A DNA stretch of 63,529 nucleotides, filler included, from Lenisia limosa (lineage: Eukaryota; Protista; Breviatea): assembly GCA_001655205.1 (NCBI GenBank). It is 13 parts of 13 records of this genome, joined end to end, with 100 filler letters (N's around TTAATTAATTAA, not from the genome) between each part and the next. Parts side by side here need not be neighbours in the genome. Positions count along the whole stretch, not along the records: positions 1 to 8,812 come from LPNZ01007077.1; positions 8,913 to 15,411 come from LPNZ01000123.1; positions 15,512 to 23,507 come from LPNZ01002638.1; positions 23,608 to 26,036 come from LPNZ01006547.1; positions 26,137 to 32,168 come from LPNZ01007581.1; positions 32,269 to 35,073 come from LPNZ01007898.1; positions 35,174 to 39,413 come from LPNZ01003404.1; positions 39,514 to 40,831 come from LPNZ01002954.1; 5 more parts are not named here. One strand, written 5' to 3'. The notes beneath the pieces were generated by a model. It did not search any database, was not told the origin of the DNA, and was given only the letters and a program-made list of their open reading frames with translations. The position numbers and the translations under genes are program-made. Below are positions 468-58,790 of the stretch, in pieces. The stretch's first letter is position 1; every line of letters begins with the position of its first letter.

Positions 468-3400
468 AGAGGCCATGAGAGTATGGAAGGATGACGTGAG
501 GTCTGCAACATCCTGCTGAGTTCTCCAGGGAATTGCCGCTGGAATTAATGAAAGAAATGCGGAGAAGTGAGAAGACTGTTTTAAGTGAAATTCGAAAAAA
601 GGAGAATAAATTGATACTATTTGAAGAACTAAGGAGAGAAATAAGAAAGGAGGAAAATGAGAAGGAGAGAAATGTGAAGAAAGGGGAGAAATAAGAAGGA
701 AGGAGAGTAATTGGATTCCACATCCTCAACTTTCAACCCCCCACATCCAGAGTCAATGGCCGCGCAAAGGTGTTTTAAGAGGCCCACGACATTCGTTGAA
801 TTCGGCGTGACTCCGACAAAATGCGTGACTGCTTGGCTGGAGGGGGAGAGGTAAAATTGGAAACTTTATTAAACAAAAAAAAAATAAAATAAACAATAAT
901 ATAAAAAAAGAACAAAAAAAAAAGAGAGAGACGAGCCCTTGCCTAACACCGCAGAACCAGAGTGAACGAGACGAGGCGCACTCTGAAGAAGTCTAGAAGC
1001 AGAAGCAGGTTTGCTATGAGATTTCCCCCCACTTTTTCTCGTCTTTTTTCGTCCATCGGTCAGCTACCTTCGCCAAAACTGACGATTTTCCGCTACCCGC
1101 GTCGCCAACAACAATCATAGGCTTCCTAAAAAGGCAAGTTAGCAAAATAATGTCATTTTAATAAATTTTAAAAACAAAAAATAGGCATAACAATACAACA
1201 AAACTGAACACGCACTCCCCCTCTCCCCACACACAGACTTTCCAACATTTATCCGCTCTTAAGTGCTACCCCCCTTTATATTCTCCCTATACTTAGTATA
1301 TTTATACTCACAACACTCCCTCCCCCCACATTCCGGTATTCTCCGTCGTCATGGCCAAGACAGAATCGACAAGATCCTGTCGACCCACAAAGGTGCCAAC
1401 TCTCCGTCCGCCAAAGGCCGCGTGGTTCTGAACCTCAGCTGCATGGACTGAGGGAGGGGTTAAGAAACAAACGTAAAAGGAGCACAAAACTAACTAACTC
1501 TGTTGGTTAATAACACACGAGGGTTGAGCTCCCATAAAAAGGAATATGTGAGTGACAAAAAAAGCACAAAATCAACTCTGTGCAACACAGTTATAGTGAA
1601 GGAAATTTTGCTGAAGAGTATGAAGAATTTATGGATGGTTAGGTTGGGAAAACGAAAAAAAAATTCAAAAAATTCAATGCATAAGTTCTTAAGAGTTGAT
1701 TATTCCTCTGGAGTAACCACGATAATTTTGAGGTTTCCAAGATTCAATTCTTTTACAAACATTGCTTGTTCCTTATGATCTACCTACGGTTAGAAAAAAA
1801 GACCCGTTTAAATATCGATTTGTCAATCGACCTTGACATCTTTGGCATATATCCATAATCAAGGACTTTTATTGTTTTCCATAATAATGTAGTTGTGATC
1901 TTGCTAAGGCCATCTTCCACAAAGATACCATTATTTTCCCTAGTCGTCTTTCTGGTGATCTTCGTTCTGGTAGGAATAGAGCCCTCGATGCCCTCAAGCG
2001 GAGGACTATGACTCGTCAACCCTTGTAGATTTGTTACTGTTTCTTTTGTAGCGTTATTCACAATAATAAAACCTTAAAACCTTCCACCGCCATTCGAATT
2101 GTGGAGAGGTCGCTTTTGTGAGTTAAAAACATGAGCTTACAAGGACTGGTTTTGTCTGTTTTTTCTATCACCAGTTTGGACAGATCATCATGCCTGACGT
2201 TCATGGATTTAATCAACTCTAAAGAACCCGGGGAAAATATTACAAAAAAAAGGGAAGAACCAGAGAAAAGTCACGGTGGGACCAGTACACACAATCACGA
2301 TGAAAAAAGAAAATTATTACTATCTATTTTTTACAAAGACAAAAAAACACAAGTTAAAGAGAATATTGTCTGTACCCCCCCCCCCCAANNNNNNNNNNNN
2401 NNNNNNNNNNNNNNNNNNNNNNNNNNNNNNNNNNNNNNNNNNNNNNNNNNNNNNNTTGCTGGAAACTCGGCATCAATGGCACCCCATAAATCCTCGGTAA
2501 CTCTATCTGCGAAAGCCTCTAGGTCAACTACCATAGGTTTGCCCTCGACAATCCCTCCCCTAAAACCTCATTAGAGTTGGGAGATCTTATCAAAATATTA
2601 GGGCTCCGTGCAATTAATTGAAAAACGAATTTCAAAATTTGAAATAGTACATATTCCATTTCAGACACTTTAAGGTGGTGGTGTCAGGCCATTTTTTTTG
2701 GGGGATTGAACATGATTTGACCACGCAATTACAATCATATTCTTTCACAGAAATCAACAGATGAGCCAAATAAATGGTAAAAAATGCAAATGTCAACCTT
2801 CCAAGAGTTTACCTGGCGGAGTGTTAAGAGCATCAATATCAAGGACTATGAAAGACATGGGGCAGGGTGATCACGAATAAGAGCAAAGACTTGTCGGAAA
2901 TGACACCAAAGTACTAATCTGTGCCGTAAAACTGCTGAGAGGCGGGGGGTAAGAGACACGAGTTACCCAACGAAAAAGGACAAAGAAAACACTAATCACT
3001 TCTTGAATACCTCTCATGCCTTTAAATATGCTTCTATTAACTAATCATCATGCAAAACTAGAAAAAGAGGAAAAAACTCGAGAATTCTCTGAGCGAAAAA
3101 ATTGGCGCGCTGATGCCAACCTTAAATGCTCTCTGAACAACTCGAGATTGTCTCTTATCTAGTTTAATCCAGTGTAGAAGCATATAAGAGAGAATCTGAG
3201 AGTGTTCAGAAGCGACTTGGGGTTTTTCTTTCTTTTCTCAACTGTTTCTTAAGCCTCTCTCTTCCCCCATAAGTCTCTTAGTGGTTTTATTTTACAGTAT
3301 TGTACTCTAAAGTGTCTCCCTTCAAGCATTTGCGGATCTTCGTTATCATCATGTCCCAAGCCTTTCGCGATCCTTGATTTTGATGATCTTCAACCCCAAT

Positions 3401-6400
3401 CAGGTAAACTCCTGGAAAGTTGGTACATGCATTATTTATCATTTAACTGGCTCATCTGTCGATTCCTGGGAATGAATAATGGAAGTAAAGCGGCCTTTAT
3501 GAGATATCTAACANNNNNNNNNNNNNNNNNNNNNNNNNNNNNNNNNNNNNNNNNNNNNNNNNNNNNNNNNNNNNNNNNNNNNNNNNNNNNNNNNNNNNNN
3601 NNNNNNNNNNNNNNNNNNNNNNNNNNNNNNNNNNNNNNNNNNNNNNNNNNNNNNNNNNNNNNNNNNNNNNNNNNNNNNNNNNNNNNNNNNNNNNTTCTAA
3701 TTGTGTCATACTCAAACAAACGCCCTCTCTTGGTACTCATTTATTGTCCATTTACAGAGAAAAAAGTTGGGCTTCACTTCGGTTCAAAAATAGACTGAAT
3801 TTCTAGATAAATCCTCGATAAATATCGAAATATCATCGGTCTTTTTGGACCGAAGTGAAGCCTAAAATAAAAGCCCCCCCCGTCCCACCATTTACAGGGA
3901 TAATTGTCCATGACTCTACCAGGCGCATTGGCCTTCAAGTATTCCTTCCATTTTGCCAGCCCTTCAATTCCTGGAGGGGGGAAAATTGGAAATTTTATAA
4001 AACATAAATAGAGCGGGCGAAAAACGTAAATTTGTGATGGAAGGAGGGGGGGGGGGGCAACTTGAACAAAATTCAATTTANNNNNNNNNNNNNNNNNNNN
4101 NNNNNNNNNNNNNNNNNNNNNNNNNNNAGAATAAAACAACAAACTTGGTTGGTAAAAGGGAAAAAAATGAAAAATAAAGAAATAAAACAAGTGGTATTTA
4201 TAGTGCTTATTCAGATTTGGTTCGGAGATGTGAAGTAAGAGATAATCTTTGTAAGTTGTGAACATTGGTACATTGTTTAACGTAAGTTTCTTTCTTTCAA
4301 TATGTAAGCTGACTACTCAGCTAGCAATCGTGGTGTAAGTATGGAGACTCTATTTGTATTGAAACTGTTAAAATGAGTAACCCTGAAGATGATAGTGACA
4401 TGAAAGTGTTGTTAGTGTCCTGTCACACCACTCGGTTGTGTCTTGTGGTTAGTCAGTATCTACGAGGTGGAACACTGAGGAGATGGTTAGATACCATTGC
4501 GGGATACACTTTGAGAACTCTGCAATCAAACTGTTTTTTCAGTAAGAAAAACTGGTTGAGAAAGAGCGATACTCCAATGTGTTTTATCAAACATAGGAAA
4601 TGCTGTTCAATTCACTGAAAGAAAAAAGGTGTGTATTTATTATTTTTAATTCCAGGTTTTACGGGATCAAAGTCGTGACAAATAATAATAATAAAGTACA
4701 TTTTTCATGTCTTCTTATGCGTTATTTTGTTGATTGTTATAGGTGTGAAATACCCCGCATGCCTTAGTTCTGTCTATACTGTTCATTTATTTATCACATT
4801 AAAAAAGAAAAAGAAAACAAAAAGATTCAATGTAATTCATTTCTAATTGCATGGCGGTGCTTTATTCTTTTGACTAGCGAAAGTAGTTCTTTAAGTATGG
4901 ACGAATTTGNNNNNNNNNNNNNNNNNNNNNNNNNNNNNNNNNNNNNNNNNNNNNNNNNNNNNNNNNNNNNNNNNNATGGTGCTGTTCCGAGAATCTCTGG
5001 AGGACAGCGTAAAATTCATGAAGATTTGGAACCTGTCTTTCTTCTGCTGAATTCAAGGAAGTGGCGAAATAGATTAAATAACCTTCCAGGCGAATGATGT
5101 GGTGAGACAGCACACAGGTAAAACACTACGTTCTCGAAGGAGTATGTCCCACGACTGTTGAAGAGATTCCCTGTTCTGAAAACAATGGTAGGTCCAGATA
5201 TCCAATGTCATTTCTATTTAGAAGCCAAATGTTTTGGATAAAGCAAGAACCCATGCTTTCACTGAAGAGCGTTTCATGCAACATATCGCCGCAATGTTCA
5301 AAATTATCTTTGAAAAACAAGTTCATCCCCAGTTAGTCTACAACTGCGACGAGACAATGGTAGATGTATCGGATAGGAAGAGTCCAAAGGTCATCACCCT
5401 CAGGGAGTATTCCAAGGTTTACAAAAAAACCACTGAAACACAACCAACGCATATCATGCTAATTGCGACCATTGCGTAAGCTATTATGTTGTTTTTTAAA
5501 ACTAATACTTCAGATCAAATCTGACCATTGCAACCCCAGTGTTCTTGACTGGTCAAGATGTCTCACAATTTAGAATTTTACAACTTGGACAGAATACGTA
5601 TTTCAGTATTCTGTGCCAAAAGTGGAAGCAATTGCACTGGGACCACAAGATGTCCCACTGGCGAGATCAGTTCAAACCTTCAAGGTAACTCCTGGTCTCA
5701 CAACGACTGAGATACGCGATGACCAAGTTGTGGTTAGCAAGTCCTTAATTTTGCGAAGAAAGCAACGCCAGAAGAAGGTTGAAACAAAGCAAGGCGCATC
5801 TCTTGGTCCTGAGATGATTGATGCTACTGGTGGTGCTACTGAGGTTCGAAAAAGGCAATTGGAAAGAAAAGCAGTTGGAGGTTTGTTTAATATCGCTTAT
5901 TTAACATCCAAGGGAGGAAGGGTAAAACGAGGAAGAGGGTGCGATGCAGGCGTGGTTGAGCTGCAAGGCAAAACGGATTGTGTAATGTGTGGAAATATGT
6001 TTCAGTTTTTCCAAAACCACTGAAAGCCTTTCTTAGTGCTCTTTGAAAATGGTCAACAACGACGAATTTGTGGTAGAAGAAACCACATTCCTGCTGAAAC
6101 CAGCTCTGATAGAGATGGTAAGGATTTTCTGCCTTTATATCAACATTTAGAAAAGTCTATAAATTCAGAACCAGCTCCCAAGAAACGGTATGCAGTAGGT
6201 TGTTATAATTTGTCCTAATTATATTCTAGATGAAGATGTGGTACCGAAAACACCAATCAGAATTCTCCCCGCGGTTAATTTCTTAATGATATCAAATTTA
6301 TATTTTAGTACCCCCAGGAAAAAAAGCACAGAGGGAAAAGACCTGGAGGATAATGTCCTTTTTTACGGCTATGTTCTGTTTTTGGGAAAATATATGACTT

Positions 6401-8912: not shown

Positions 8913-11900
8913 GGAAATATTGCAGTGAAGATGTTCCAAAACCGGAAAACTTCAACGATATATGATACGTTATCACTCTTCGGAATCTGAATGCAAATAT
9001 TCAAGAGACAAATAAATCTCTTTTCACAGGGAAAAAGATATCAGAACCAACGTTTTAGTTTTGCTTGTTCTTCCTTGATCATTTCTTGGGCCTCCAATTC
9101 AGCCTTACTGAAGCCGCCGTCAGCCAAAGTAACCTCCCTGAAGGGTCAAAGTTGCATTATCATTATGATTGTTAAAAACCGTTTTAACAGCCGCGATCCA
9201 ACGCACATCAATAAGTCGGAGCTGGCACCAGGATCATATCGCATGGGGTCCGACCAGGCCGCTCCGAGCCTCGAAATGGTGGCTACTTCCTAGACCCGTT
9301 AGAAATGCTGGTTACTTCCTAGACCCGTTAGAAATGCTGGTTACTTCCTAGACCCATTAGAAATGCTGGTTACTTCCTAGACCCGTTAGAAATGCTGGTT
9401 ACTTCTTTGGCACATTAGAAATGCTGGTTGACACAAGGTAGAAATTGGGCGAAATATGTCTCAGCCCCAATACCCCATCAATGGCATTTGCCGCAGTCGC
9501 AGCAGCCGCCTTGATTTCGCGTTTAGTTCCAGGCTTGACCTGAGGGGGGAGTAAAATTGGAAAATTTATGAAACAAAAAAGCCCAAATCAACGTAAAATT
9601 GGAATTGATGAAACAAAAAAAAAAAGAACCCAAAATTAACTCTGTTGGCTAACAACACGAGGATTGACAGCTACAAAACAAACAATGCCCAGGCCAGTCG
9701 CTCTGCAGCACCGCATCCCATCACTCCAGCATAAGTAATAATCCGGAATTAGACTATTTCCAAAAAGATACATGAGTCCTCTCACCTGGTCAAGCCACTT
9801 CATCAAAGAGGATCTTTCCTCATAATATGCCCCTAAAATAAGGTCAAGACGGAATTGAAGGAGAAACGGTGGTGGGGATTGTGTTAAACAAAACCAAAAA
9901 CCATTGTGAGACCCCCCACTGTTTGCATCAGTAATGTCAATGGAATCTTGGAAGTTCTCTTGGTCTGACTTCTCATCTGAAAGGTCAGAAATCCAAAAAG
10001 AAAACCCTCCATGGTGAAATATCCAACAATGAATTTGGAAGTGTAGAATTCAAGCATTGATATAAGAGAAATGAACGCTACCGACCTTCACTTGAGGAGT
10101 TCTCATCCTTGAAATCTGGGTTGAGGGCAAAACGATCGTCTCCTAAAGCATTAAATCAGTCTTAAATATGACTTGCTCCCTTTTGCATTCACAAAGCAAA
10201 CGATACTGAATCTTTTGCTTTGTACTTTCAATAGTAGCCATGATACTTGAGTACTGAGCCTCCTACCCTTGTATTTCTGCTGCAGTTTCAGAAGCTTTCG
10301 TCCCCTCTTTCCATCGAAAGTCTCATCATGAGCCACTACAAGGTCAAAGGAGGCAGGGGAAATAAAACCTGAACAAAAAAAATTAATGGCACAGACATAC
10401 TGAGTTTTTCTGGGTCTTCTGCGACACTTTCCTCAGTTTCGCCAAACAACGATTTTGCCTCCTTTTCTTCACGAATGAGAGAGGTTTCTTTGCCTTCACC
10501 AAAGAGAGACGGCTTCGAAGACGAATCAGCAAACAAGTCAGCCTTCTCTTCAGTCTCCATTTCTACCTTCTCAGACTCACTTTCCTCCTCTTCCCCTCCT
10601 TCATCATCTGCGTCTTCTTCATCCAGAACCCCATCTTCCGCCCCAATGTCTCCTTCCATTTCCTTTTCTTCTTCTTCCTGTGCTTCGTTTTCTTCTTTCG
10701 CCTGTTTAAGTGCTTCTGCCTCTTTCTCCTTCACTGCTACAAACACAGTCAGACAAGTAAATATGTTGGGGATGTATTGTAAACACGAGTGGTAGTATTT
10801 CGGAGAATAGGCCATTTTCATACCCCCCCCCCACAGGCTTGGCGCCATTTGCGTCTACGCTCTCTGAACTTTTCCATTTTTTCCCTCAGTTCCTCAGGAC
10901 TCAGCCAAGGTTCACTGTCACTGGGGTCAGCTCCCACTTCGAACAGCTACGTCGTGAATACATGTCAAATTGTCGGATTATCATGCTTCAATTTGAGGAC
11001 TTGCAAACATCACCCACCCCCTCACTCCTCTCTCATCACCAAGTCCGACTTGAGCGGCTCTATCGGCGTCTGAGTCGGACTCCACGTCCAAATGGAACAG
11101 CTCATTGTCGTCTAGGGGGAGGGGTAATGGGGAGAGGAAAAAGACCTTGTTGATAACATTCATGTGGCATTTTGGTTCATGTTATGAACACATATTCAGT
11201 AAAGGATTCCCGAGCATTGTAGGTGCCACAAAAGAACCCGCACCACAAACCCGAATCATAGACGTCTACTTTGCCCTCCATCAACTCGTCCTTGTTGTAA
11301 CGGTTCTCCTCCTCCTGCCGGATTCGATCCCGCCTTGCTGCGTCTCGAGAGGCGCGTTGGGCGTTCAGGTCAAAGAGTTGATCACAGATCGTGAGGTTTT
11401 TGAAGGTTCGAGGGTCAAATCGGAACTGAACTATGAGTGGGATGGTTGTGTTTTTAGAATCCCTATGTTTAATAGATTTGCTTCAACTACAAAATCGAGG
11501 TAGGAAGTTACAAGTTTCTTATGGTGTTCAGAAGTGCAAACTAAGAGTCCACCATAAAGCTTAGAAAGAATATTGATGAGATCAAAATGCTATTACATCC
11601 TGTGCCTCCCCAGCATATATATATTACATGTAAGCACTCCACAAACCATGACACCATGGCCCGTTTTCTTCTCCAGCTCCAGCACGGGGTTCGGCTCAGT
11701 ACCGGGCCCAATAATCCAGTCTCCCTTCTCCAGCTTGTCGGCATTGAATGGGGGAAGGATGGAAACTGAAACATATGAGGTTATATCGAGGGGGGGGGGT
11801 ACTGGGGAGCATGAGAGTATGAGGGATGATCCATCAATGTGTAAGATTCTTATTCCAGCGTACCCTGATTAAACTCCTTGTTTTTATTAAGTCGCCTCCT

Positions 11901-12849: not shown

Positions 12850-15311
12850 ATGGAATCCTTCAAAGAGATCAGCCCTGTTGAGGTAGAGGGACTCATTGAC
12901 TCTCTCTTTGCTCCTATTGTTGCTGATATTTCCACACCAAGGTTGGATTTTGTGAATTAAAAGTTTCAATGTTCCCCTTCTTTGACATTTGGATTTCTTT
13001 TCCCCAGTTAGACTGATGTGCATTTTGGACACAAGTCAATACTTCAACACTTTATAGTATTTATCTAAACTGACCACGCAGATGGCACCGCCAACATGCT
13101 GCAATGGAGCAGTTGAATGTTGAAGTATGATGAATGATGTGGTCCTTGAATGAATTTCAATTCACACAACTTATTGGACCCACATTACAGTTGTAGCACA
13201 GATGATCCATTTTCGTTTTTTCATCAATAACAATTACCTCTTCTAACCCCCTAGGCAAGGCGCCAAGTCAGGGCTCGGGTTGAAGAGCAAGTAGTGGAGA
13301 GTCTCATCTCCAAAGACAAGGTTTGCTTGAAGTGGTGGTGTTGATTTTATCAGATTGTCCCATCCCCTCTGTTTTCAAACAAGCTAAGAGAGTTGATTTT
13401 GTTTTGTTTCGTACAGTACCCGTTTTCGCACCACTTCCAATCATTTTTTGTTCCAATTTCTTTCATTGTTTTCTCTCCCCAGGTTCGGATTTTGGTTCAA
13501 GACTTGCTGTCCATCGAGGCTTGGAAGGCTAAGGTTTTGGAGAACATTGCAGGAAAGAAGTTTAAGAAGGTCAATGACAACAACTACTTGTCACTTTATA
13601 TCATTGTGGGTAGGGCCTTTTTTCAGACCCATTTCTCACACAAAATCATTGTATTTTTTAACTCTGCCCAGTAGCCTAGTGTGTTTAGAGGTTAAACTGT
13701 ACTTTGAAAATGCTCGGATTTTGCATTTTTTTTTGTTTTAATCCACACGTCTTGAATCCCAGCAAATAGAAAATAGCACATTTGCTTTACAGCAGGTATG
13801 TCACTGAGAACTGCCACGTCATCAGGACCAAAATCATTGAAATTTTGTGGATATTTCATTTTTTTTTAGTTTCGTTTAAAATGATTTTTAAACAGTTCTA
13901 GAGAGCATTTCAGCATTTTGAATTTTTTTAATTTGGTGAAAATTGCGTGAAAGTTGACAAAATCCGAGCCAGGTTTCTCAGTGATATACCTGCTTTAACA
14001 AGTTTGATTCTTCGAGTTTGTTGATGAACTATTTAAAAATCTGTTTTTGAGTGAGGCCATAGGCCTCTTCGATCCCCTAACTTTGACTGCTTAATGCACA
14101 CATTAAACAACAACGAAAAGTTCACAAATTCAGATAATTTTAATGTTAACGCCACAGTGTCATCACGAAGCCTCGGTTGTGAGTCTATTGGAGATTGTTG
14201 CCAATCACCTTGATATTCTCGAGTCCCTTGGTGATGCTGTCATTGACATGGCGGATTACTGCTGCAGAAAGCTAGTAACTCTACAGGTCTGATTTCCATG
14301 AATTCTGTAATGATCTTTAGTGGGAGTGGTTCACTTTTCTCTTTGTATCAGCTGTTTATACATCAGGCAATGAGTTCGCCCAAGCTTGAAGTCGCGACAA
14401 ATGCACAGGAAATGATGGCTGAGGGGGGAGGAAAGGTATGCTTCAGGAATATGTTTTTTTAGGAAGACTTGTGGTGCAAAGGTGTAGCAAAAAAAAAACA
14501 ACTCTGACATTTCCCCCTCTCCAGAGGTTCCGTAGGGAGTTCCGTAAAATTGAGTACAGCATCTGTTTTTCGTGCCTTGGTATCATGCGGTTCTTCGCTG
14601 ACCTCGCGCCTAAGTCCTTACCTCTCCTCCAACGCATCATTTCACAAAATGGTATCCAGGACAAGGTGTTGTCTCAAACTCTTTTTAATGCTCTGAATTT
14701 CTCGACACTAATCTTCAGATGTAATACTCAATGTCGTTCCTCTGTTTGCTAAAAAGCCGTGGACCAAAGTTCAGGACGGCAAAACATACAAGGTTTGTCC
14801 TGACTCGACATAAATCTCAGAGATATGGAATAGTTACATATCCTCATACACCAAACAAGGGTTATGGAAATTGATTGAGTTTATCTTGATTTGCGTCACA
14901 ATGAAGTTGCGTTTAATGATATAGTGGGAGAACAGCAAATGGGTTGAGGTCCAAAAGGGACTCGAGAGGCAAATGTCGCGATACGAGGGTAATGGTAAGT
15001 TAAGTCAACTTTTTCTGTGTTTAGCCCTGTATCTACTATTCTTATGACGACTGTACCCAATCTGTACATCACCATACTATTAACGACTCACTTGTAAAGC
15101 CTGGCTCTGCATCTATAATCTCATGATGGAACCTGAAGTACGAAGACGTTACCACATTACGGATCATAGGAAGGAGGTTATCATGACAGTGAGGGGAGTA
15201 CTGATTTCACCTTGTTTTGCTTTATCTATTTCACTGAACAGTTACGGCAATACATTAATGTGGACGTTGTTGACCAGATTCCCATGCTGGAGGAGCTGCA
15301 TCGGGCTTTGG
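12850..15311 (+). CDS. ZMYND10: ZMYND10 (BLU) dynein-arm assembly factor; MYND finger lies beyond the contig end
   Basis: Exons: MESFKEISPVEVEGLIDSLF..|WHRQHAAMEQLNVE|..EEQVVESLISKDK|VRILVQDLLSIEAWKAKVL..YLSLYII|CHHEASVVSLLEIV..VIDMADYCCRKL|..KKPWTK..|WENSKW..|AWLCIYNLMMEPEVRRRY..|LRQYINVDVVDQIPMLEEL, colinear with ZMYND10. Confidence 0.92.
13787..13998. mobile_element. MITE family D (~215 bp, TTAA-flanked) in a ZMYND10 intron; related copy at 42777-42993
   Basis: TTACAGCAGGTATGTCACTGAGAA..TTCTCAGTGATATACCTGCTTTAA. Second copy: TTAAAGCAGGGTGGTAATTCAGAAAA..TTTTCTGAGTTACCACCCTGGTTTAA. Both share CTGGCTCGGATTTT internally. Confidence 0.8.
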
Positions 15312-22258: not shown

Positions 22259-22581
22259 CTGGGGGAAGGGGGGGAGTAAAACGAAGGAAATTTCAATGAA
22301 GAATATTGGCGTAAGAATGGAAATTTTATGAAATACCCCACACACACGCAAACAAAGATTAACAACAAACATGAGGTTTGTGATGATGAACAGCGAGAGA
22401 GGAGGCGAGATTCAAACAAAGCTCAAGATAACCATATCATAAAATAATAGGTATATGATATTGCTTAGCACTTAGATCACATTAAGAGCGGAAAGGAGAC
22501 CAATTAGCAAGTTTCCACCCCCACCACCACAAAAATACCTCTGGGTTTCATTTAGACTATCTGACAGAATACTATCAGGAT

Positions 22582-22965: not shown

Positions 22966-23467
22966 TAAGGCCGCGTTCGAAGGGTCAAGAATTCTTAGGA
23001 ATCTTAAGATTGACTTAAAGACAAAAGTTTTTGTGTTCGAAGTGCAAACTTAAGTCAGTACCCCAACAGTCCCCTGGATTGTTTTTATTATTATTAAGTA
23101 ACAAACATGTACAATAATTGTTAAAGTTCCTCTTTCTCAGCTAAAGTTGAGCAAAAGAGTACATTGTACATCACAATTACAAGAGGGTCCCATTGAAAGC
23201 AAAATTTTAATGATAGATTAAAAATAATCAAACAAAAATAGAAGCAAAGAAGCTGCAAAGAAGAGGGGAAGCAGGAGGGAAGAAGGGAGAAGGAATCCTA
23301 AGAATCTTAAGTCACCAAAATCGGGGTCTTGAAACCCAGCCAAATCTTAAGAATCACCGAACCTGGGGAGCCACTTCCGAAACTTAAATTGAACTTAAGA
23401 AAAATTACACTTCTAACGCAAAATCTTAAGATTCCTAAGAATTCTTGACACTTCGAACGCGGCCTTA
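22966..23467. mobile_element. MITE C (~500 bp, ~45-bp TIRs; PIF/Harbinger- or Tc1-type)
   Basis: TAAGGCCGCGTTCGAAGGGTCAAGAATTCTTAGGAATCTTAAGATT..AATCTTAAGATTCCTAAGAATTCTTGACACTTCGAACGCGGCCTTA. Confidence 0.9.
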
Positions 23468-42373: not shown

Positions 42374-44005
42374 AATACTTCATGACCAGTGTCGTCTTCG
42401 AAGACCAGGCCTGAACCGTGCCGGGATGGCAATGGTCCTTCGTCTGTGGGGTAAAGTCGGGATAGCAGGGAAAATCGGTATATTAGCTACGTAAAAGCTG
42501 AAAAAATACGCTAACATAATGGAAATTTAGGGGAATCAGACAAAATCGGAATATTAGGTCTCATCCTAGAAGCTAAAAGAGGAATATTATATTCTCAGTC
42601 TTATCGTATAATGTAAAAACGAAACACACAATCGATGAACTCTGTTAGTCATCAGAATGTTAAATTCAGAATTAAGCCAGAATCAACTCCCACCTTCCGA
42701 AGCTGGCTGCCCCCACGAGTCAAGTGCGGGTGATGGCGGACGCGCAGCTACTGTGGCGTTAGCGCAATTTTGGTTTTTAAAGCAGGGTGGTAATTCAGAA
42801 AACTGGCTCGGATTTTCGTTCAAATTTCTCTAAGATTGGCAAATATTGAACGTGGTTTACGCCAAAGCTTGGAGTCTTCCAAACAAAAGTAACAGGTAGT
42901 TATTAACAAAAAAAAAGGAGTTTCAAAGAAGGCGTCTTAGAACAATTTCTAACAGCATCCGTGACAATTTTCTGAGTTACCACCCTGGTTTAAAACAGCA
43001 ACTACTCTAAATAAAATCTAGGTTCATAATTGTTAAATTTTTACNNNNNNNNNNNNNNNNNNNNNNNNNNNNNNNNNNNNNNNNNNNNNNNNNNNNNNNN
43101 NNNNNNNNNNNNNNNNNNNNNNNNNNNNNNNNNNNNNNNNNNNNNGGGGTGCACGACTTGATGTTCCCGTAACTCGGAGGGCCCCTGAACTGCTTCCTGT
43201 GCTTGATGGTCGTGCCTTAAGGGGAAGTGAAAAATGAAAAAATGAAAAAAAAAAAAACATGGAAAATATGAAACAAAAAAAATAACTCCAAATTCAACTC
43301 CATTGGCTGAGGCCAATCGAGATATAAAGGTAGAATCGGCCAAAGCCAACATCAGTATCCAAACCATCTCCCCCTATGCAGACCTGTCTTTGGCTGCTTG
43401 TTGTTCGGCTAGGTTGTCTCTGCGATTGCGACGTATTCGACCGCATTGATCTAAGTAGAGTGAAAACTTGTATGTTGTCTTCCTCAACTTTCTGAATTCA
43501 CGTTATGTGTCCTCCTCTATGTTCTTCTCTGTATTCTTATTCGGGAACAGTTTCTGGAAATCCTCTGAAGGTATGACATCATTTCAGACCAGCTGAGACT
43601 CTTGGCAAACCCACGAACCCCTACGGTCCCAAAAAAGACCGGTCAAATATCGATATTTATCCAGGATTTATCGAGAAACTCAGTCTTTCTATTATTACCC
43701 TCTTTCGGCCAGTAGGGAAGACCTCAATCAATTCGCCTATCAGTTACCCCTTCTTCATGGGGTTCCTTTGTCTTCTTTTTTTCTTATTATTTTCTTGTTC
43801 TTGACAAAATGCTTACCTAGCTGGACTTGGGCCTGGGGCTTGGCGGCCGATTGGGGATGGACTTCTTCTGGTACTGGGAGGGGAGGAGGAATAAGATTGG
43901 AAAATTTATGTAACAAAAAAAATAAAGGCAAATGTAACTCCATGCCCACTTTCTTGCTGATGACTTGTCAGCTGGGTCTCTGGAGTACGGCGATGATGCC
44001 AACCT
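42374..44005 (-). CDS. Unidentified Ser/Pro/Arg-rich spliced gene fragment
   Basis: LASSPYSRDPADK|YQKKSIPNRPPSPRPKSS; ARPSSTGSSSGALR; ARPPSPALDSWGSQLRK|TKDHCHPGTVQAWSSKTTLVMKY*. Confidence 0.4.
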
Positions 44006-44705: not shown

Positions 44706-47700
44706 CGGTACTAAGAAGAGAGAAATGCCCTTATTTGAGCCCACCATAAGCGTGACGTTGTAGTTGATGATCATAGTGGTAGCAAAGACGGACGGTGGGT
44801 ACGCAGGATTGGCGAGTTTAGTGGTCAGATACAGGCGGAACGAAGGGTCCCAGTCGATCTGATTTGTAAGATGACATATCCGTAGCAAGAAAGGGAAAGC
44901 CAAGCAACCTCCTTGTCTCCGATAATGATGTACTGTCTTGACCCGGCCTTGATGATTTCCTTATTCAGCACCGGCGTGATGGTTGGGTCCTGGGGGGGGG
45001 GGTAAAGCGAAGGAAATTTNNNNNNNNNNNNNNNNNNNNNNNNNNNNNNNNNNNNNNNNNNNNNNNNNNNNNNNNNNNNNNNNNNNNNNNNNNNNNNNNN
45101 NNNNCCGAATAATCTGAAACTCCAAACAAAAAAACAAGCAATAATAAACACAAGCAACCAAAGCTAAAACCAGACAAAAGTTATACATTGCATTACAAGG
45201 ATATAATATGATGGGGGCAGTAGAAAGAGCAGAAGGTGGCTTACAATATGCTCGTCCACACCCTCCAGGAGGAAGGGGAAGCCGAATGTGATGGACATTT
45301 CGAGCTGCTTCAAGAAGTCAGCATCATGGAACGACGAGACCCTGAGGTTGTTGGCAGCTTCCTTCCTCTTGACCCATGCCACAGCCTGCTCTTGGGGATC
45401 AACACACAGTGGCCATCTGGGGGGAAATGGTAAGAGCTGAATACCTTATGATATGAAAAAGCTGAACCTTTATCTCCATCCATGCGCAATACAGGCCAAA
45501 CAATGCCTACTTGCTAGCCCGGACCGTGAGAATTCCGTTCTGCAGCGAAAGGTCGTCCGGAGGGAGACCCTCAGACGCCCATTGCGTGACTTGAACCTCA
45601 CTCGTAAGCCGCCGGTCTGGGGGGGGGGGGGGGGGGNNNNNNNNNNNNNNNNNNNNNNNNNNNNNNNNNNNNNNNNNNNNNNNNNNNNNNNNNNNNNNNN
45701 NNNNNNNNNNNNNNNNNNNNNNNNNNNNNNNNNNNNNNNNNNNNNNNNNNNNNNNNNNNNNNNNNNNNNNNNNNNNNNNNNNNNNNNNNNNNNNNNNNNN
45801 NNNNNNNNNNNNNNNNNNNNNNNNNNNNNNNNNNNNNNNNNNNNNNNNNNNNNNNNNNNNNNNNNNNNNNCAAGAGAAGCCTCAAGGACTGGAAGCCTAC
45901 CAAGCCTGAAAGTGGTGCTGACGGGGATGTTATTCTCCTTGATGTTGGCCATCCAGACGTCATCCATGAGATACTGTCGGTACTCGAATGAAAAGGGGCC
46001 TAGGTAACTCAGGAATCCAGCACACATGAGCGCGTCTCCAATCTGCGAAGGGGTGAAACTCTATCCAAACAGTGTCAGCAGTATATATATGATGAACCAT
46101 GACGACCGGATTAGTAGAAGGCTTACCAGGAATAGACGGTCCTCTTGGAGGTCAGCCAACTCCTGCTTCCATCTCGTTTGCTCGGAGGAAAGGCCTGAAA
46201 ACGTAAGGAAGTCTCTTTGATTTCTGATGAGGCAAAATCTCCCCCCCTTCCACCGGTAATCAGCTTTGACGCTGCCACAAGTCGGCGCTCCATGATTTCG
46301 GCCTCGGACTTGAGCTCCAACTGCTCGATGGTGGCCTGGGCGTAGCGGTTCCCAAGGGTCTCGAGCTGGTCACTCAGCTCCTTCACCTGGGGGGGGGGGG
46401 GNNNNNNNNNNNNNNNNNNNNNNNNNNNNNNNNNNNNNNNNNNNNNNNNNNNNNNNNNNNNNNNNNNNNNNNNNNNNNNNNNNNNNNNNNNNNNNNNNNN
46501 NNNNNNNNNNNNNNNNNAACTCTTTTGGCTAGCAACACACGAGGTTAACACCAAAACATAGAAAGGGTTCGTGATGATGAGATTACTTACAAGTTGTCAG
46601 GATTGCATAAAGTCGGTTCTAAGTCAATCCTCATACCTCTTGTTTGATTTGGTCAAGGTCCTTTTCACTCTTTGACAGGCGTTTCATATTGTCCTCAACG
46701 GCTTGCTTCTTGGGGTTGACCTGGGGGGGGGGGGNNNNNNNNNNTCAACTCTGTGGACTGACAACACGAGGGTTGAGAACAACAAAACAAACAAAGCCCA
46801 TGCCAGTCGCTTCTGCAACACCGCATCCCATCACTCGTGAGAAGACAGGTTGCCCCAGGGTTTGGAATAATCAAAAGGCACGTACCTTCTTAGCCACTCC
46901 GAAGTAGTTGATCATTGCAAACACCCAGGACAACAGTCCAGCACCAGCAATGGAAATGTCCCGCATGCGCGCCGGCGTGATATCAAGTCTACACGTATGA
47001 CCATGAGAAAAACTATTCCTAGGCACAAAATCCTCACAATCCCAGTCCCAATAGAGCAGACGTACTTACCTCTTCAAATACTCCTTGACCTGGCGGGCCT
47101 GTCGATCCGAAACTGAGTCTCCGTTGAACTCCAAAAGCTCAGACAGGAAGTTGGGACCTNNNNNNNNNNNNNNNNNNNNNNNNNNNNNNNNNNNNNNNNN
47201 NNNNNNNNNNNNNNNNNNNNNNNNNNNNNNNNNNNNNNNNNNNNNNNNNNNNNNNNNNNNNNNNNNNNNNNNNNNNNNNNNNNNNNNTTGGCACTCTTCC
47301 AGGAGACCTCCTTCACACCCTTGAGGATGACCACACACTCGCAAACTGCTTGGACCTTGCGGGAGTGAAATTGGAAAATTTAGATGAAACAAAAAAAGCC
47401 CAAATCAACTCTGTTGGTGAGAGAAAAGGGCTGAAGAGATTGAAGGAGACCATTGTTCTAAGAAAACAAACAAAAAAACATTTAGTGTGATATTTGATAA
47501 AACATTTAGTGTGATATTTGATAGAAAGAAAAGACCCCACTTGGACAGGGGGCTTGGCGAAGGATCGAATCTCAGTCAAGTCGTTTTTACTCAGATTCTT
47601 CAGAGCCAATCGAGCCTCTTCGAGGGCAGGTAGAGCTTCCTCCAAAGCCTCTTCAGCCTCAGCCTTGTCCTAAATCGTCAGCAACTGTTGCATCGACAAC

Positions 47701-52835: not shown

Positions 52836-53480
52836 CCACCTTTAGATTTAGCCATGATAGTTGCTTCGTCATTAATGGTAGTTAACATCTCCATGTTCAC
52901 TTTGCCTCTAAATTAATAAAGCGTGAAGAAAATCAATCTGACCAAAGCCATCCATACAATCACCCTAGTGGGTAATAGTATAGTATTGATTCACATTGTT
53001 TACTCACAACTATATAAAAAAAAACCAAATTCCCCACACCCGAAACGTGTGGTACCCCCCAGCAGTAGTCCCCCCAAACCTGCAATAATAGCCAGCAGGG
53101 GCAGTGGGGCAAAGTTCAATAGCTGGGGGAGTAAAACGAAGGAAATTTCGATGGAGAATACTGACGTAAAGGTACTAATCACGAACCGAGTCATCTTAAA
53201 CTAAAAACAAACACGAGCAACCACCAGATGACAAAAACACAAAAACAAAAACAAGCCCGAGCCAGCCTTTGAAGAGTCCCACACCGCTCGATCACCCAAA
53301 CGTACCTGTAAGGCGTTAAAAAAGTAAGGGGGAATTTTAAAAATCCGACTTATTAACCGTCACAACCCAATCAAAACGCTGAGAGCCGTCCCAAGCATAT
53401 GACCCCCGAGGGGATCAAAGCTGGATGGACAGAGCAGACCAGACCAAACTGCAGAAAAGAATCTCTACAGGTACGAATAA
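52836..53480 (-). CDS. Fragment of an unidentified membrane protein
   Basis: Hydrophobic exon LLNFAPLPLLAIIAGLGGLLLGGTTRF (53122-~53045) after an acceptor cassette; flanking open exons. Confidence 0.35.
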
Positions 53481-54289
53481 TATGGTGCCAAGCAAACTCT
53501 GACTATTTTAAACCATACTGATGCTGAGCAAAAAAGTAGTAATGATATCAACAAAAAGTGGCTGAACAAAACAAACACTCATACAGCAAACATTAAAATC
53601 AAAACAACAGCACAAAAAAAAAAACAAAGGGGCACAAGTCAAANNNNNNNNNNNNNNNNNNNNNNNNNNNNNNNNNNNNNNNNNNNNNNNNNNNNNNNNN
53701 NNNNNNNNNNNNNNNNNNNNNNNNNNNNNNNNNNNNNNNNNNNNNNNNNNNNNNNNNNNNNNNNNNNNNNNNNNNNNNNNNNNNNNNNNNNNNNNNNNNN
53801 NNNNNNNNNNNNTATATGATATGTGTATTCATTAAATCAAGGGATATATGTATTATACAGTGACCATGGTAACTCTTGACATATTTTCCTTGGGAAATCA
53901 CACAGCAAATTGGTCAAGACTTATCCCGGTCATAGTATTAATATACCTTTGGAAAATGACTCGACCGCAGAGGGGTGGCTCATGAGATCTCTTTGCGCGG
54001 CTCTGGAGTGTTAAAGCGAAAAAGATAATTGATTTTGAGGTTGAATCANNNNNNNNNNNNNNNNNNNNNNNNNNNNNNNNNNNNNNNNNNNNTTAATTAA
54101 TTAANNNNNNNNNNNNNNNNNNNNNNNNNNNNNNNNNNNNNNNNNNNNACGACTGATATATATATCCGATTGAGCTGATGGTTTTTTTTTGCATTTTCAC
54201 CCCCCCCCACCATGGAAACAGTTTCCCTCCCAAGTACGCTTCATATCTCAACTCTCTAATCAAATATATCATATCAAACATGGAAAAGC

Positions 54290-57200
54290 AAACAGTCAAA
54301 CAACCACCCTGCTTACTTGGTCATTTCTGAGGGTCTTGGTAGAGGAACCACCTTCGTCTCTGAAAATTGTAAGAGTTAACTTTGATCTTTGGATAAAATA
54401 CAATGCCTTTTGAAAGCAGATTCATTACACAATCTTAACTTTGCAACAAATCCAAAGTTAAGGTCAAAATTATGTTTAGGGCAAATGGTTTGGACAATTT
54501 CTCTTCCAAACATGTTGTAAATGGCTTAGTTCCCCCATTGAATTCAATCCCAACACTGCATTCCTACCTGAGTTGACATGATACTCCAAAAGGGCCCTAA
54601 AAGGTCAGTCGTAACAAAGCAGCCGAGTGATGGTGTAATAGTGAATTATGTTACGTTACTTCATTTGCTTATTATTTTGCTCTCAAATAATGATACTCAC
54701 CCAGGAGTATCAGTTAGAAATAAGAGGGCCCAAAAACGACCGAATATCTCGATAAATCCTCGATAAATATCGATATTAAAACGGACTTTTTCAGACCATA
54801 GAAAACCCTAGAAATGAGTTCTAAAGGCCCCTATTGTACTTCATTTCGCTTCAAAAATGAAAGGACGGAATTTCTCAATCAATCCTCCATCAATCTCGAT
54901 ATTTTACCGGTATTTTTTGGACTGAGTGAAACCCCTGATACCTGGCTTGGGCTCGTGTAGTGAGGTAGCTTCTGACCACTTCTGCCGACTCTTGTGTTTC
55001 CTGCAGAAAACAGTGAATGACCAACACGAATAATGCAAGCAATATCGTCCAGCAATATCTGAAAAGAATGGCCTTGCTTACATTGAGTCTGTCTTTCTCT
55101 TGTTGACGCAGTTTAGCAATAGCTGCTTTATGTGTTATCTAGTTAAGTGAATATCATAAAATATACATGTATATATTGTAAAATATATCCAGAAATCCAT
55201 AAAACAATATTTATACATGTATATGATATGTGTATATATCAAGGAAAGGACTTCCAATATGTGAACGTGAAAAAACCTTCTATAGTGTATACCACTAATT
55301 GTTTCTGATGTATTTATTTTTGGTCAAAACAATTCAATACCTTAGCTTTTTCAATTTTGTCGACCAGAGACTTGTATGCCTTTTCTCTCCTTTTTGTGTC
55401 CTCTTTAACACTTTTCATAACCTAGAGGTTGGTCAGAAACCAGTTTTATGAATTCATCATACATTACAATTAGGGGTTATATCAATGAGATAAAAAAAAA
55501 ACAAGGTTGTATCTNNNNNNNNNNNNNNNNNNNNNNNNNNNNNNNNNNNNNNNNNNNNNNNNNNNNNNNNNNNNNNNNNNNNNNNNNNNNNNNNNNNNNN
55601 NNNNCTTGTATGGGGGGTTATAAATATTATCTCTTGCGTACCTTCTCTTTGCCGTCTTCAAGAGCGTTACTCAGTGTTTCGAGGGAAGAGTCCATGTCCT
55701 TTTGGAGCTTGGCGGCGCTGAAGTGTTGTAACTACGACTTCACTTCGATTCGAAAAAATACTGAATTTCAATCTTCAAAAACTATCAATATTCCAGTCTT
55801 TTTCGAACCGAAGTGAAGCTCTAGTACTAGAGCTTCCATATGGTCCCAAAAAGACCGTCAAAATATCGATATTTATCGAAAATTTATCAAACAATTTAGT
55901 TTTGTTTAAAACTGTGGGTCATATATCCGAGATAGTCCAGACCTAACAGAAAGCCCAATATCCTTGTCAGGACTTATCGCAATCAAATCCAAAAGTGATA
56001 AAATATAATATATCATATACATGAATATATGTATATACANNNNNNNNNNNNNNNNNNNNNNNNNNNNNNNNNNNNNNNNNNNNNNNNNNNNNNNNNNNNN
56101 NNNNNNNNNNNNNNNNNNNNNNNNNNNNNNNNNNNNNNNNNNNNNATATATAATATATATTGCATTATAGTACCGAGTGACCGGGTAAATCTTGACCGAT
56201 TTGCTCTATGATTTCTCAAGGAAAATCCCGGTCAGTAAGCATTGAATATAAAAACAGAAATGCTCTAAATAGTCAAAAAGAATACCTAAGCGCATTGACT
56301 TCTTCCCTTCTCGCCAAGTCAGCTTTCAATGATTGGTGCTGTGCTTTGGCTGGAAGGTAAGAGTACTTCATATCAAAATACTATCTTTTACATCACATAT
56401 ATTTGGGGCTGACAAACCTTTGGTGACATCGGTATCATACGCTTGGAGGAGGGCGGAGTAATCCTCTTCAACCTAATTGCATGAGCCAAAACCCAACGTC
56501 TGTTTGAATCGACACACCAAATTCCAGGCACTCCGAGGTTTTATTTTGCTTTACCGGTCTTCTTTCAAGACCGATATTATATGCATCATACTACATACAT
56601 GTACATGTACATATAATATACTAAATAGTTCATATCATATCTAAGAGAGAGAGATAGACGACGTACATCTGTGGAGTGTTTGTTAACTGTGTTTGAAGTT
56701 ACATTATATGTTTTCTTAAATCCCTAGACGTCTTTTTTAGAAATAAAAACACAGAATCTTGAAACTCAAACCTGCGCGCGATCTTCATCATAGACACGCA
56801 AGTTGTCCAAAATGGCGACATTGGGCAGGTGCTTGATGACAAACTGCTTGTACGTAATTGCAGCAGAGACGGGGGCGGGGGCAAATTGGCCGTCATTGAG
56901 CGACAGGTCGAAAAGCTGGGTGAGCCCCTTTAATGGCTAGGGGAGGGGGGTGAAACGAAAGAATTTTTACAAATAGTTTGGCGCGTTAGNNNNNNNNNNN
57001 NNNNNNNNNNNNNNNNNNNNNNNNNNNNNNNNNNNNNNNNNNNNNNNNNNNNNNNNNNNNNNNNNNNNNNNNNNNNNNNNNNNNNNNNNNNNNNNNNNNN
57101 NNNNNNNNNNNNNNNNNNNNNNNNGAAAAGTACAAAACAAAAATTAACTCCATTATTGAAACTGGGTTGAAAACATCAAAACACCCAAAGCCCAGGCAAG

Positions 57201-58790
57201 TCGTTTCTGCAGCAACATCCCATCATAAAAATGAAAGAAATGTTGTTGAAGATTTAATATATGTATATGATATATGCATTTGTATTATCTACATTGACTA
57301 CGATAATTTCAGGTCTGATTGTCTAACTGATCAAATCACTCATGAAATACCCCATACTACCTTGAGTGGCGCAATACTCTGAATAGGGTTGTCAGAGGCA
57401 CCAAGAATTTGCAGATCATGAAGGGTTGACAGCGGTGATAGGTCCGAAATATTGTTCGACTGGGGTATGGGATATTGTTATTGACATATTGGTATCATAT
57501 AAAACTATATACTATACTGGATAGTATAATATTATTGTGATGCAGCATGAATGATTGATTTGACATGTTATTATTACCCGTTTAATATTCCTTTAACAGT
57601 TTAGAATGGTGAAAATCCCTAATTATTGCTTGTAAAAAGCCCGAAAACAACCACAATTACCTGTATCCAAAGTTCCTTTAGAGTTGTAATAGCGGATAAG
57701 GGGGTCAGATCAGAGATCTCGTTTGTGTGGATCCAGAGCTTGGCAAGTTTGGAGAGCCTAGGGATTGTGAAATGAGCCATATCGGCATATTACTGAAGCC
57801 CTAAACATACCTGTCAATGCCCGTAATGTCTTCGAGTAACCCATCGGTGAAGTAGGCCTGTCTAACGTGCGGAAGTTCTGGGAGAGTTTCGAGTGAAGTG
57901 AAGGGCTGACCGCTGATGTTGAGGGATCGAAGCGTGTCTGTCAAGTCAATGGGAAAAATATTGGTAAAGAAATTGTAAAGCTGACAAACTTTTAAATTGG
58001 ACACTGTCAAAAAAGAAAAGTAAATTTTACAAAACCATAATTAACGACGGTTTCTCTTAATGCATCAGGTTTGGTTAAGTATATTATTTATCATAAATGG
58101 CGCCCTATAGTCCCAATTATGAACTAAAATATAGTCTACCAGAGTCACCAACTTGATGCTCCCCATATTCACCTTATTCCTAGGGCTTCACTTCGGTCGA
58201 AAAAGACCAGTAACATATCGATAGTTTTCGAGGATTTATTGAAAAATTCAGTCTTTTTCAAACCGAGTGAAGTCATACACATATCAGATACCAAGAACCC
58301 CACCTTTTACCAACACCAAAGCAGATAAGTCTCTCAAGCCAGTTTCAATCACTACACGATCAAAAGTTATGCGCTGTGATATGACAGAATATTATAATAC
58401 CGTATCATTACACTTTTTCAATGGGAAAGGCTGCTGAAAGAAGATGAGGCCTTTTCCTGGTTACTGTATATCAAATTATAACACCATAATATATTGACAG
58501 ATAGAAATAACCATGCGGTCTTCTCCTCTTACGTGTTAGCGACTTCAAATGAACAAACACCCCGATTCCTGCCAAGCTAAATTGGTGAGACACTTAATGG
58601 CAAGGCTTCAATTCTGAAACCTGATTTCCAACCTGTTGTTTTTCGTTTTGAAAAAGAAAGAAATGGAAATAAAGACCACTCCTGTTCTTACTTATGAAGT
58701 GGCGTAAAGAGAATATCCAACTTCAAGACCTCCTCTGGCGCTTCGTCCGTGCTGCTTTCCTAACAGAAGTTATCATCGTTATTGGGACTC
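54290..58790 (-). CDS. Leucine-rich-repeat protein (SDS22-like LRRs + LRRcap, then coiled coil; possibly LRRC9-like)
   Basis: TLRSLNISGQPFTSLETLPELPHVRQAYFTDGLLEDITGID|LSKLAKLWIHTNEISDLTPLSAITTLKELWIQ|SNNISDLSPLSTLHDLQILGASDNPIQSIAPLK|..YKQFVIKHLPNVAILDNLRVYDEDR (LRRcap). Confidence 0.8.
56937..57224 (-). mobile_element. Acceptor cassette copy (gap inside) in the LRR gene
   Basis: TGATGGGATGTTGCTGCAGAAACGACTTGCCTGGGCTTTGG at the 5' end; ATTCTTTCGTTTCACCCCCTCCCCTAG at the 3' end. Confidence 0.75.

Follow-up and report, generated by a model that had tools for sequence, protein, structure and literature searches.

Introduction

How does a repeat of ∼150 bases come to form the 3′ ends of introns in unrelated genes? 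The question is raised by a window of 63,529 nt, which joins 13 short, intron-rich contigs from the flagellated microbial eukaryote Lenisia limosa. The intron-related mobile elements known to us either form whole new introns or land in introns regardless of splice signals. A sequence-only reading of the window had proposed a single dispersed, introner-like cassette that either targets the 3′ ends of existing introns or creates introns by means of a cryptic upstream donor. Here we examine this repeat, and we favour as its likeliest mechanism a non-autonomous retroelement primed at branch-point/C-run acceptors, to which we give a probability of about one half.

Results

Modules at intron 3′ ends

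A profile of the body of the ∼150-base repeat (F1), built without the terminal C-run and AG, was used to search the window. Of its 23 matches (E ≤ 10), 12 were significant at E < 0.01, a threshold that no match reached in ten block shuffles. The 12 significant matches comprised seven seeds and five non-seed copies (1479-1528, 13338-13401, 43273-43315, 46518-46565 and 47388-47420), and F1 copies were 68-89% alike. F1 is a real repeat, and the 12 significant copies lie in nine genes. Judged by their sequence, the modules form two related families, F1 and F2, and not the one consensus first described: the units at 22259, 44990 and 53123 and the acceptor at 56937 were assigned to F2 (Table 1). F1 sequence was present at all 11 positions originally listed as clear cores. 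At 56937, however, an F2 unit ends the intron and the F1 copy sits ∼200 nt upstream, and at 36316 only a 17-nt F1 head, unreported by the profile, is readable beside an N gap. Among ten positions called degenerate, those at 43216 and 43874 proved significant, those at 837 and 3971 fell inside the shuffle range, and those at 32588, 38502 and 47854 matched none of three profiles. The plus-strand copy at 13338-13482, the existence of a second family and the serial stacking had been overlooked in that reading. The gene names proposed for the hosts stood for dynein, through its homologues, and weakly for LRR; the others were without Pfam support from single exons, 17 of which yielded almost no names.

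Table 1. Module units in the window, with positions counted along its whole length.
Feature	Position	Strand	Remarks
Possible F1 tail only	837..881	-	E 0.81, inside shuffle range
Three stacked modules	1448..1620	-	F2 remnant 1598-1620; truncated F1 1541-1588; truncated F1 1448-1528 ending at AG
Possible F1 tail only	3971..4007	-	E 0.17, inside shuffle range
Second F1 unit, 5′-truncated, stacked behind the 9593..9733 copy	9540..9592	-	Gives the RNA-verified acceptor
Full-length F1, head to branch-point motif	9593..9733	-	Intron 9540-9785; older TTAC precedes
Degenerate F1, plus-strand gene	13338..13482	+	E 0.007; ∼80 more nt to AG
F2 unit at acceptor	22259..22340	-	Follows F1-like 3′ end (that end by eye)
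Diverged full-length F1	24015..24151	-	∼30 nt from donor 24182; no older branch point upstream
Near-full F1	33394..33542	-	Starts directly behind C-run; N gap adjoins
F1 with internal deletion of ∼33 nt	34076..34187	-	Starts 3 nt behind TTAC
Weak F1 tail fragment, antisense to host	36136..36174	+	No AG behind; BLAST E 1e-5, profile E 0.33 (inside shuffle range)
F1	36316..36446	-	Head readable, body in N gap, then C-run and AG
Older F2 composite	36447..36590	-	Ends TTTTACT directly upstream of F1 head of 36316..36446
Still older branch-point/C-run remnant	upstream of 36447..36590	-	By eye
F1 cut at contig end	39280..39413	-	
Degenerate F1, 5′-truncated	43216..43315	-	Profile
5′-truncated F1	43874..43943	-	Occupies nearly the whole 76-nt intron (donor by eye)
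F2 module, dynein acceptor	44990..45160	-	Length of RNA contig fits its use
5′-truncated F1, dynein acceptor	46387..46565	-	N gap inside
Full-length F1 directly behind TCAC	46721..46836	-	49 nt from donor 46885
5′-truncated F1, dynein acceptor	47356..47420	-	
F2 module, F1-like head (by eye)	53123..53296	-	∼10 nt from donor 53305
F2 unit	56937..56989	-	Acceptor of the intron that also holds F1 57136..57226
Internal F1, behind F2-like end	57136..57226	-	Not an acceptor

The claim that the repeat is always sense to its host was true of all 12 significant copies (binomial p = 5e-4); the exception is the weak fragment at 36136, on the plus strand inside the intron of a minus-strand gene. A C-rich AG lies downstream of each of the 12 copies. 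The F1 tail is itself a C-run, and the C content of the last 10 nt was 6.9 at module acceptors vs 3.4 in 23 ordinary introns (p = 4e-6).

This polarity, which we counted in favour of the retroelement, weighs against an ordinary DNA transposon (MITE) that inserts at random and of which selection keeps the splicing-neutral copies. A MITE would lie in both orientations, in introns and between genes. MITE-like repeats are indeed abundant in the genome. For F1, however, neutral antisense and intergenic copies are missing, while a near-palindromic repeat in the same window is unpolarised, with six copies in one orientation and seven in the opposite one within minus-strand genes (host genes judged by eye). 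Of all parts of F1, the head gives the best pairing with the tail of the element (7 bp), yet this pairing did not exceed that of shuffles (p 0.17-0.68). In addition, five copies had no terminal inverted repeats (TIRs), target-site duplications (TSDs) were not found across the junctions of 17 introns, where the longest duplication was 5 nt, and the ends are ragged. A TIR-bounded element was rejected, and the MITE explanation as a whole is very improbable.

Use of the module acceptor and integrity of the protein

RNA contig 9 of run X2 joins position 9537 to 9784 with 0 differences, which after a 2-nt shift corresponds to intron 9540-9785. Thus, the cassette does end at a used acceptor AG, the direct RNA proof being this one junction in one X2 contig. 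Among the X2 contigs listed none covered 46387, 46721, 47356 or 47854, which carries no weight either way. The X2 contigs that contain the repeat may represent pre-mRNA or DNA and did not reveal a discrete transcript, a point against the retroelement.

We then asked what the module introns do to the protein. When dynein was compared with 12 homologues, all of them intronless there, no residue was missing at five of six module or C-run introns. At intron 47356, six of the 12 homologues aligned without a gap and the gap in the others lay ∼15 residues away. Since no residues are lost at the dynein module introns, a cryptic exonic donor is refuted there, and the proposed creation of introns with a cryptic upstream donor is not supported. 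The best dynein homologues were ∼50% identical over the stalk region. Intron positions were compared over 80 dynein loci, of which 74 matched the stalk region, two had >300 extra nt and five were put through a spliced aligner. Four credible introns emerged, in two of the 80 loci. One matched the non-cassette intron 45417 in position and phase and none coincided with a cassette intron, a comparison that has little power with two loci.

These data bear on whether the modules are introners that make new introns at AG|GT, their unrelated 5′ part having been captured or having decayed. AG|GT occurred at both ends of 5/17 module introns vs 0/23 ordinary ones (p = 0.009, post hoc, with eight donors placed by eye), which hints at new introns and counts against the retroelement, and only 6-10 nt separate the donor from the start of the module at 43874 and 53123. 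The cassette intron positions were not seen in homologues either, but with four credible introns that test is almost powerless. Against this explanation, the duplications across junctions never exceed 5 nt, the donors are of the ordinary type and each is different, there are older branch points and modules upstream, and the coding sequence shows no loss. We therefore regard it as improbable.

Stacking, ragged 5′ ends and the probable original intron

The modules are stacked: the start of a newer one closely follows a branch-point motif, C-run or module that is older. Four of the six heads that could be placed start ≤10 nt behind T[TC]AC, which was the case for 90 of 1070 background windows (8%; p = 6.5e-4), whereas a C-run precedes the fifth head and an F2-like end the sixth. 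Outside these six, no older branch point lies upstream of the heads at 24015 and 53123, which counts against the retroelement. The 5′ ends are ragged while the 3′ end is fixed; from our reading of the profile matches, eight units are headless and none is tailless, although the lack of 3′-truncated copies could be due to selection alone. Insertion behind TTAC is also the habit of IS608-type elements, a likeness that we dropped in view of the ragged ends.

As had been stated, the host introns share no related sequence in their 5′ parts. The donor-side bases that precede the module end in a branch-point-like motif, TCAC or TTAC, at base 49 (donor 46885) or base 51 (donor 9785), and the shortest ordinary introns in the window measure 49-59 nt. 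For this reason, the small intron that stood there originally is the best reading of the 35-60 unrelated donor-side bases. The element probably enters introns that are already present and gives them a new acceptor and, consequently, it is not an introner as defined; the label introner-like was misleading, given that homology does not extend from one splice site to the other. In contrast, the description of a module without TIRs or poly-A that brings in the branch point, the pyrimidine tract and the acceptor, and that is aimed at existing intron 3′ ends, was supported.

Copy number and the head boundary

Read depth was taken from X1, a DNA run that is probably the source of the window itself. 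With single-copy DNA at a depth of 39.5, summed depth was 60 in the exon bin 9520-9539, 228,000-444,000 over 9540-9579, 155,000-175,000 over the F1 head, 52,901 in bin 9720-9739 and 98 in bin 9740-9759. Summed contig depth is no copy number, but it points to thousands of copies in the genome. At 9544-9546, 636 X1 contigs leave through a G-run into unlike sequence. Head-to-tail joints occur elsewhere in the genome (9726 to 9544, 9730 to 9545, 9733 to 9544 and 9580 to 9544), joints pile up at the head boundary at 46836, and no empty allele was visible among the joints listed, which are a minority.

The same data address ectopic gene conversion at the DNA level, in which breaks at C/G-run acceptors would be followed by one-sided invasion of the end of another intron through the shared branch point, C-run and AG, with a variable length copied upstream and neither RNA nor any element-encoded function involved. 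Conversion would also yield a fixed 3′ end, ragged 5′ ends, strand bias and composite F1/F2 units, and it is in keeping with the clustering of module introns among the final 12 of the dynein contig and with the failure to find a reverse transcriptase in the 13 contigs. However, random conversion tracts would not end at one place in very many copies, and the head boundary is sharp, both in the fall of depth from 52,901 to 98 and in the pile-up of joints at 46836. Moreover, ∼15 nt of shared sequence, which is what the acceptors have in common, is short for homologous repair. Conversion seems a rather unlikely source of the modules, though it is the chief alternative to the retroelement.

Origin of the repeat

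At ∼150 nt F1 is too short to code and encodes neither reverse transcriptase nor endonuclease. That the 13-contig window yielded neither a reverse transcriptase nor a partner element counts against the retroelement. The F1 head is not tRNA-like, and Rfam gave nothing at gathering score and nothing with a useful E-value; derivation from a snoRNA or tRNA was rejected. The best Rfam E-values for an intronic C/D snoRNA were 4.4-8.5, on the other strand. F1 does not fold beyond shuffles (z -0.96 to +0.58), which disposes of an internal hairpin as well. A C-box-like motif is present at the head, by eye only. Motif scans of metagenome contigs and viral contigs gave no match to the element, and no relative carrying it was found.

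Junctions just behind branch points and C-runs would also be produced if the post-splicing spliceosome joined intron RNA to the branch-point tail of another intron, or reverse-spliced it at an acceptor, the chimera then being reverse-transcribed into the locus. Joining of lariat tails, trimmed to variable length, to a 5′ splice site is reported in yeast and human (PMC10996645), and merged introners occur in Micromonas (PMC3879977). But in this chemistry the junction would retain a complete 5′ splice site, whereas the head GTGATG lacks the +5 G found in 20/23 ordinary donors, and heads begin several nucleotides either side of its GT. We consider this route quite improbable.

Discussion

The retroelement reading rests on the observed position and strand of the modules, the use of the acceptor at one junction, the stacking, the ragged 5′ ends and the absence of TIRs and TSDs. 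An RNA that begins with the G-rich head and ends at the acceptor would be provided, most simply, by host transcription and splicing of a copy-bearing intron. Its C-rich 3′ end would pair with the G-rich antisense DNA strand at the acceptor of another intron, and this pairing would prime reverse transcription by a putative retroelement enzyme. Copying would often halt early and the 5′ end would be attached close to the previous branch point or C-run, with loss or displacement of the old AG. Insertions would be tolerated because the new end would restore splicing without a change in the protein, and each would offer a fresh target, building stacks. More tentatively, this may be a promoterless, intron-borne retroelement that obtains its RNA by host splicing, targets branch point, C-run and AG, replaces the acceptor at each insertion and has serially rewritten a large share of intron 3′ ends, proteins remaining unaltered. 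The literature searched contained no such case.

If true, targeting and renewing existing acceptors would be a new safe-haven strategy, and one repeat could reshape the splicing signal of a genome, module acceptors having twice the C content of ordinary ones. Such elements are screened out in introner surveys, so they may be overlooked elsewhere. As stacks keep the order of insertion, the mechanism (RNA-primed, conversion or reverse splicing) is testable from one genome and transcriptome.

Like introners, the modules are spliced out, as seen at RNA junction 9540-9785, and leave the protein unchanged, as seen at the dynein junctions. Unlike in introners, the similarity of most copies does not extend close to both splice boundaries, only 43874 and 53123 starting within ∼10 nt of the donor, and in 17 introns no TSD supplies the other splice site. 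Symbiodinium-type introners (bioRxiv 2022.06.06.494994) carry TIRs and TSDs, take their donor from the adjoining TSD and make new introns. The likeness is a repeat that gives a spliceosomal acceptor without a donor of its own; here, in contrast, there is no TIR or TSD, and the donor lies 6 to ∼380 nt off with remnants of older acceptors between. Since homology close to each of the two splice sites was a requirement of that survey, it would filter F1 and F2 out. The introner elements of Micromonas (PMC3879977) likewise number thousands, some inside or merged with other introns; each is a complete intron that carries its own donor, and their remnants in older introns lack both splice sites, whereas an F1 or F2 copy becomes the working acceptor of its host intron.

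Target-specific non-LTR elements insert at a defined site with a 3′ junction that is precise and a 5′ junction that varies, and TSDs can be absent (PMC4640811); a defined site with such junctions is what we find. With R2, Utopia, Keno and their SINEs the modules share 5′ truncation, tandem insertion and a harmless target. The targets described there are multicopy RNA genes and microsatellites, in contrast to the acceptors of unrelated genes, and no ORF, RNA-gene head or partner was found in the 13-contig window. As in SINEs, the 3′ end is fixed, the tail is simple sequence (the C-run) and 5′ truncation is evident in headless units and higher tail depth, but a tRNA, 5S, 7SL or snRNA head is missing. 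Finally, antisense SINE insertions such as the canine merle SINE also provide an acceptor, contributing the AG and its pyrimidine tract where intron and exon meet. These are rare accidents, made from a reversed poly-A tail and disturbing splicing, whereas for F1 and F2 the supply of acceptors is the regular state of the family, and the protein stays intact.

F1 is a sense-oriented repeat at intron acceptors

The window consists of 13 contigs and spacers with many N gaps, and comes from a eukaryote whose genome is rich in introns and encodes an axonemal dynein. We built a profile of F1, the main ~150-nt module at intron 3′ ends, from seven copies, excluding the terminal C-run and AG. Searching the window gave 23 matches at E ≤ 10 and 12 at E < 0.01 (five of the 12 non-seed), while ten shuffles of the window gave none at E < 0.01. 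The F1 repeat is a real and unusual feature. The 12 significant copies are spread over nine genes (~200 per Mb of readable sequence), and pairwise likeness among F1 copies is 68-89%. Assembly gaps coincide with module C-runs at 33558, 36331, 45020, 45637, 46402, 46735 and 56990; since many gaps fall at such runs, the number of copies is underestimated and the length of a C-run next to a gap cannot be trusted.

All 12 significant copies, including the plus-strand 13338-13401, are sense to the host (P = 5e-4). The near-palindromic repeat of the window (see table) splits 14 to 9 by orientation, and strand polarity is therefore special to the cassette. Terminal inverted repeats were absent from the five copies examined, and a MITE combined with selection is a highly improbable origin. 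The claim of the sequence-only reading that copies are always sense holds for the significant ones; its exception is one antisense piece at 36136, whose tail-profile score, like those of 837, 3971 and 38320-38346, lies inside the shuffle range. As for the other degenerate copies it listed, the tail profile recovered 43874 (and resolved 9540 into two units), whereas 32588, 38502 and 47854 matched no profile used.

Nor is there a single family, as had been proposed: a profile of F2, a second, related module (six matches, five of them seeds), found it closing the introns at 22259, 44990, 53123 and 56937. F2 is also internal at 36449-36483, with a weaker internal match at 1598-1620 (E = 0.05). By eye, an acceptor at 21770-21869 (+), missed by the profile, has an F2-like stretch; we take its plus-strand host gene to resemble DNase I.

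Coordinates of composite introns and of other repeats and features in the window
Feature	Coordinates	Module order or remark
Intron 1448		F2, F1, F1
Intron 36316		older remnant, F2, F1
Intron 56937		F2-like end, F1, gap, F2
Near-palindromic MITE-like family, ~95 nt	55-146, 3769-3862, 20140-20236, 35283-35380, 50567-50647, 58181-58274, 60854-60949 and 16 more loci	23 loci in both orientations; very deep in X1; copies 20140 and 35283 have flanking direct repeats of ~9-10 nt, by eye
Third short repeat family	385-442, 7120-7169, 20501-20579, 39679-39746, 44332-44421, 53854-53941, 56146-56226	ends look inverted; presumably resembles a pogo-type miniature element
Open frame	5258-5476 (+)	probably a transposase remnant, with a motif we take to be that of pogo/DDE_1 transposases; no Pfam support
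Tandem repeat, 29 nt	9273-9429	~5 copies, within the intron downstream of the 9540 exon
Further inverted-repeat-bounded elements	22966-23467, 42775-42995, 61507-61663	150-500 nt

The cassette is a working acceptor and is anchored at its 3′ end

Two sequencing runs of one study, X1 (DNA) and X2 (poly-A RNA), both contain window sequence; X1 is probably the source of the window and is not independent of it. In X2 contig 9, pieces 9473-9537, 9784-9831 and 9919-9978 lie at consecutive record positions with zero differences. The 246-nt skip is intron 9540-9785, and the cassette is its working acceptor, which bears out, for this junction, the earlier proposal that the terminal AG is used. In the dynein gene, two listed pieces of an X2 contig are separated by 80 unlisted letters; this length fits an 81-nt exon and suggests that the exon starting at the F2 acceptor 44990 is spliced in RNA. 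Listed RNA cover was found at no further cassette junction.

Summed X1 contig depth, which is not a copy number, is 39.5 in single-copy DNA. At intron 9540 it rises from 60 in the exon bin to 228,000-444,000 across the final 40 nt of the intron, is 155,000-175,000 over the F1 head and drops to 98 just upstream. Together with the density in the window, these depths lead us to infer thousands of F1 copies in the genome. Moreover, 636 X1 contigs exit the stretch at 9544-9546 via a G-run into dissimilar sequence, so the C-rich end is general (the AG itself is unreadable there). By our own count, eight units in the window lack the head and none lacks the tail: F1 is anchored at its 3′ end. The sharp head boundary in depth and joints suggests a template whose length is fixed. 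A 7-bp pairing between head and tail exists but does not exceed that of shuffles, and we found no RNA fold beyond shuffles, Rfam family match or tRNA in the cassette.

Stacking of modules on older acceptors

As a control, we used 23 of the 35 introns called by spliced alignment on the dynein contig, namely those that lack a module and can be read at both ends; the others ran into N at one end, were uncertain, or contained a module or C-run. These ordinary introns are 49-173 nt long, with G at +5 in 20 of 23 and a TNAC motif with its A 9-10 nt from the end in 16 of 23. Within the 10 nt that precede the final triplet, 16 module acceptors hold 6.9 C versus 3.4 in the controls. The six introns of this contig that have a module or C-run are all among its last 12 (44990-47977), with none upstream. 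Intron 45417-45510, which has a C-rich acceptor but no module, matches intron 13009-13092 of a distant homologue (locus L010) in position and phase; one intron at least is therefore ancient.

Four of six placeable F1 heads begin 0, 1, 3 and 8 nt behind T[TC]AC, compared with 90 of 1070 intron-body windows (P = 6.5e-4); of the other two, one follows a C-run beside an N gap, the other an F2-like end. Two diverged heads (24015 and 53123), outside this six-head test, had no such motif upstream. The donor-to-motif stretch is 49 nt (46885) or 51 nt (9785), which with a normal tail is a typical small intron size. X1 contigs from other loci show the same head-to-tail joints as the composite introns, with 9726 to 9544, 9730 to 9545 and 9580 to 9544 among the 15 joint rows listed of 79. 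The motifs and ends that precede heads, the composite introns and the joints show that modules stack on older acceptors, and the sequence-only reading was right that existing intron ends are targeted.

Its other option, a cryptic exonic donor, proved wrong. Against the best 12 of 19 full-span intronless dynein homologues, no residue is lost at 47854, 46721, 46387, 45617 or 44990; at 47356 none is lost in six of the 12, and the other six show a gap ~15 residues downstream. The longest duplication across the junctions of 17 module introns is 5 nt. Counting against the existing-intron reading, AG|GT occurs at both ends of five of 17 module introns versus none of the 23 ordinary ones (P = 0.009, post hoc, eight donors by eye); three of the five lie in one coiled-coil region.

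A putative retrotransposition mechanism and known systems

An RNA copy of the cassette would be reverse-transcribed by target-primed reverse transcription at an existing acceptor, as for target-specific non-LTR elements. We give this reading a probability of about one half, with its RNA, its enzyme and any present-day activity being putative. It is favoured by the fixed 3′ end, the target-like simple-sequence tail, 5′ truncation, the variable 5′ junction, the lack of target-site duplications and tandem stacking, traits described for such elements in PMC4640811. Conversion at the DNA level is an unlikely route to the same copies.

Transfer mediated by the spliceosome, for which we compared PMC10996645, is very unlikely. 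Some introners share with the cassette an acceptor supplied by the repeat, but introners are defined by homology at both ends, which the cassette lacks, and an introner origin is decidedly doubtful (PMC3879977, bioRxiv 2022.06.06.494994 and bioRxiv 2024.06.04.597373). Searches of mostly non-subscription literature listed no element known to appropriate acceptors that are already in place. Although it lacks the RNA-gene head of a SINE, the cassette behaves as a target-specific SINE directed at 3′ splice sites would.
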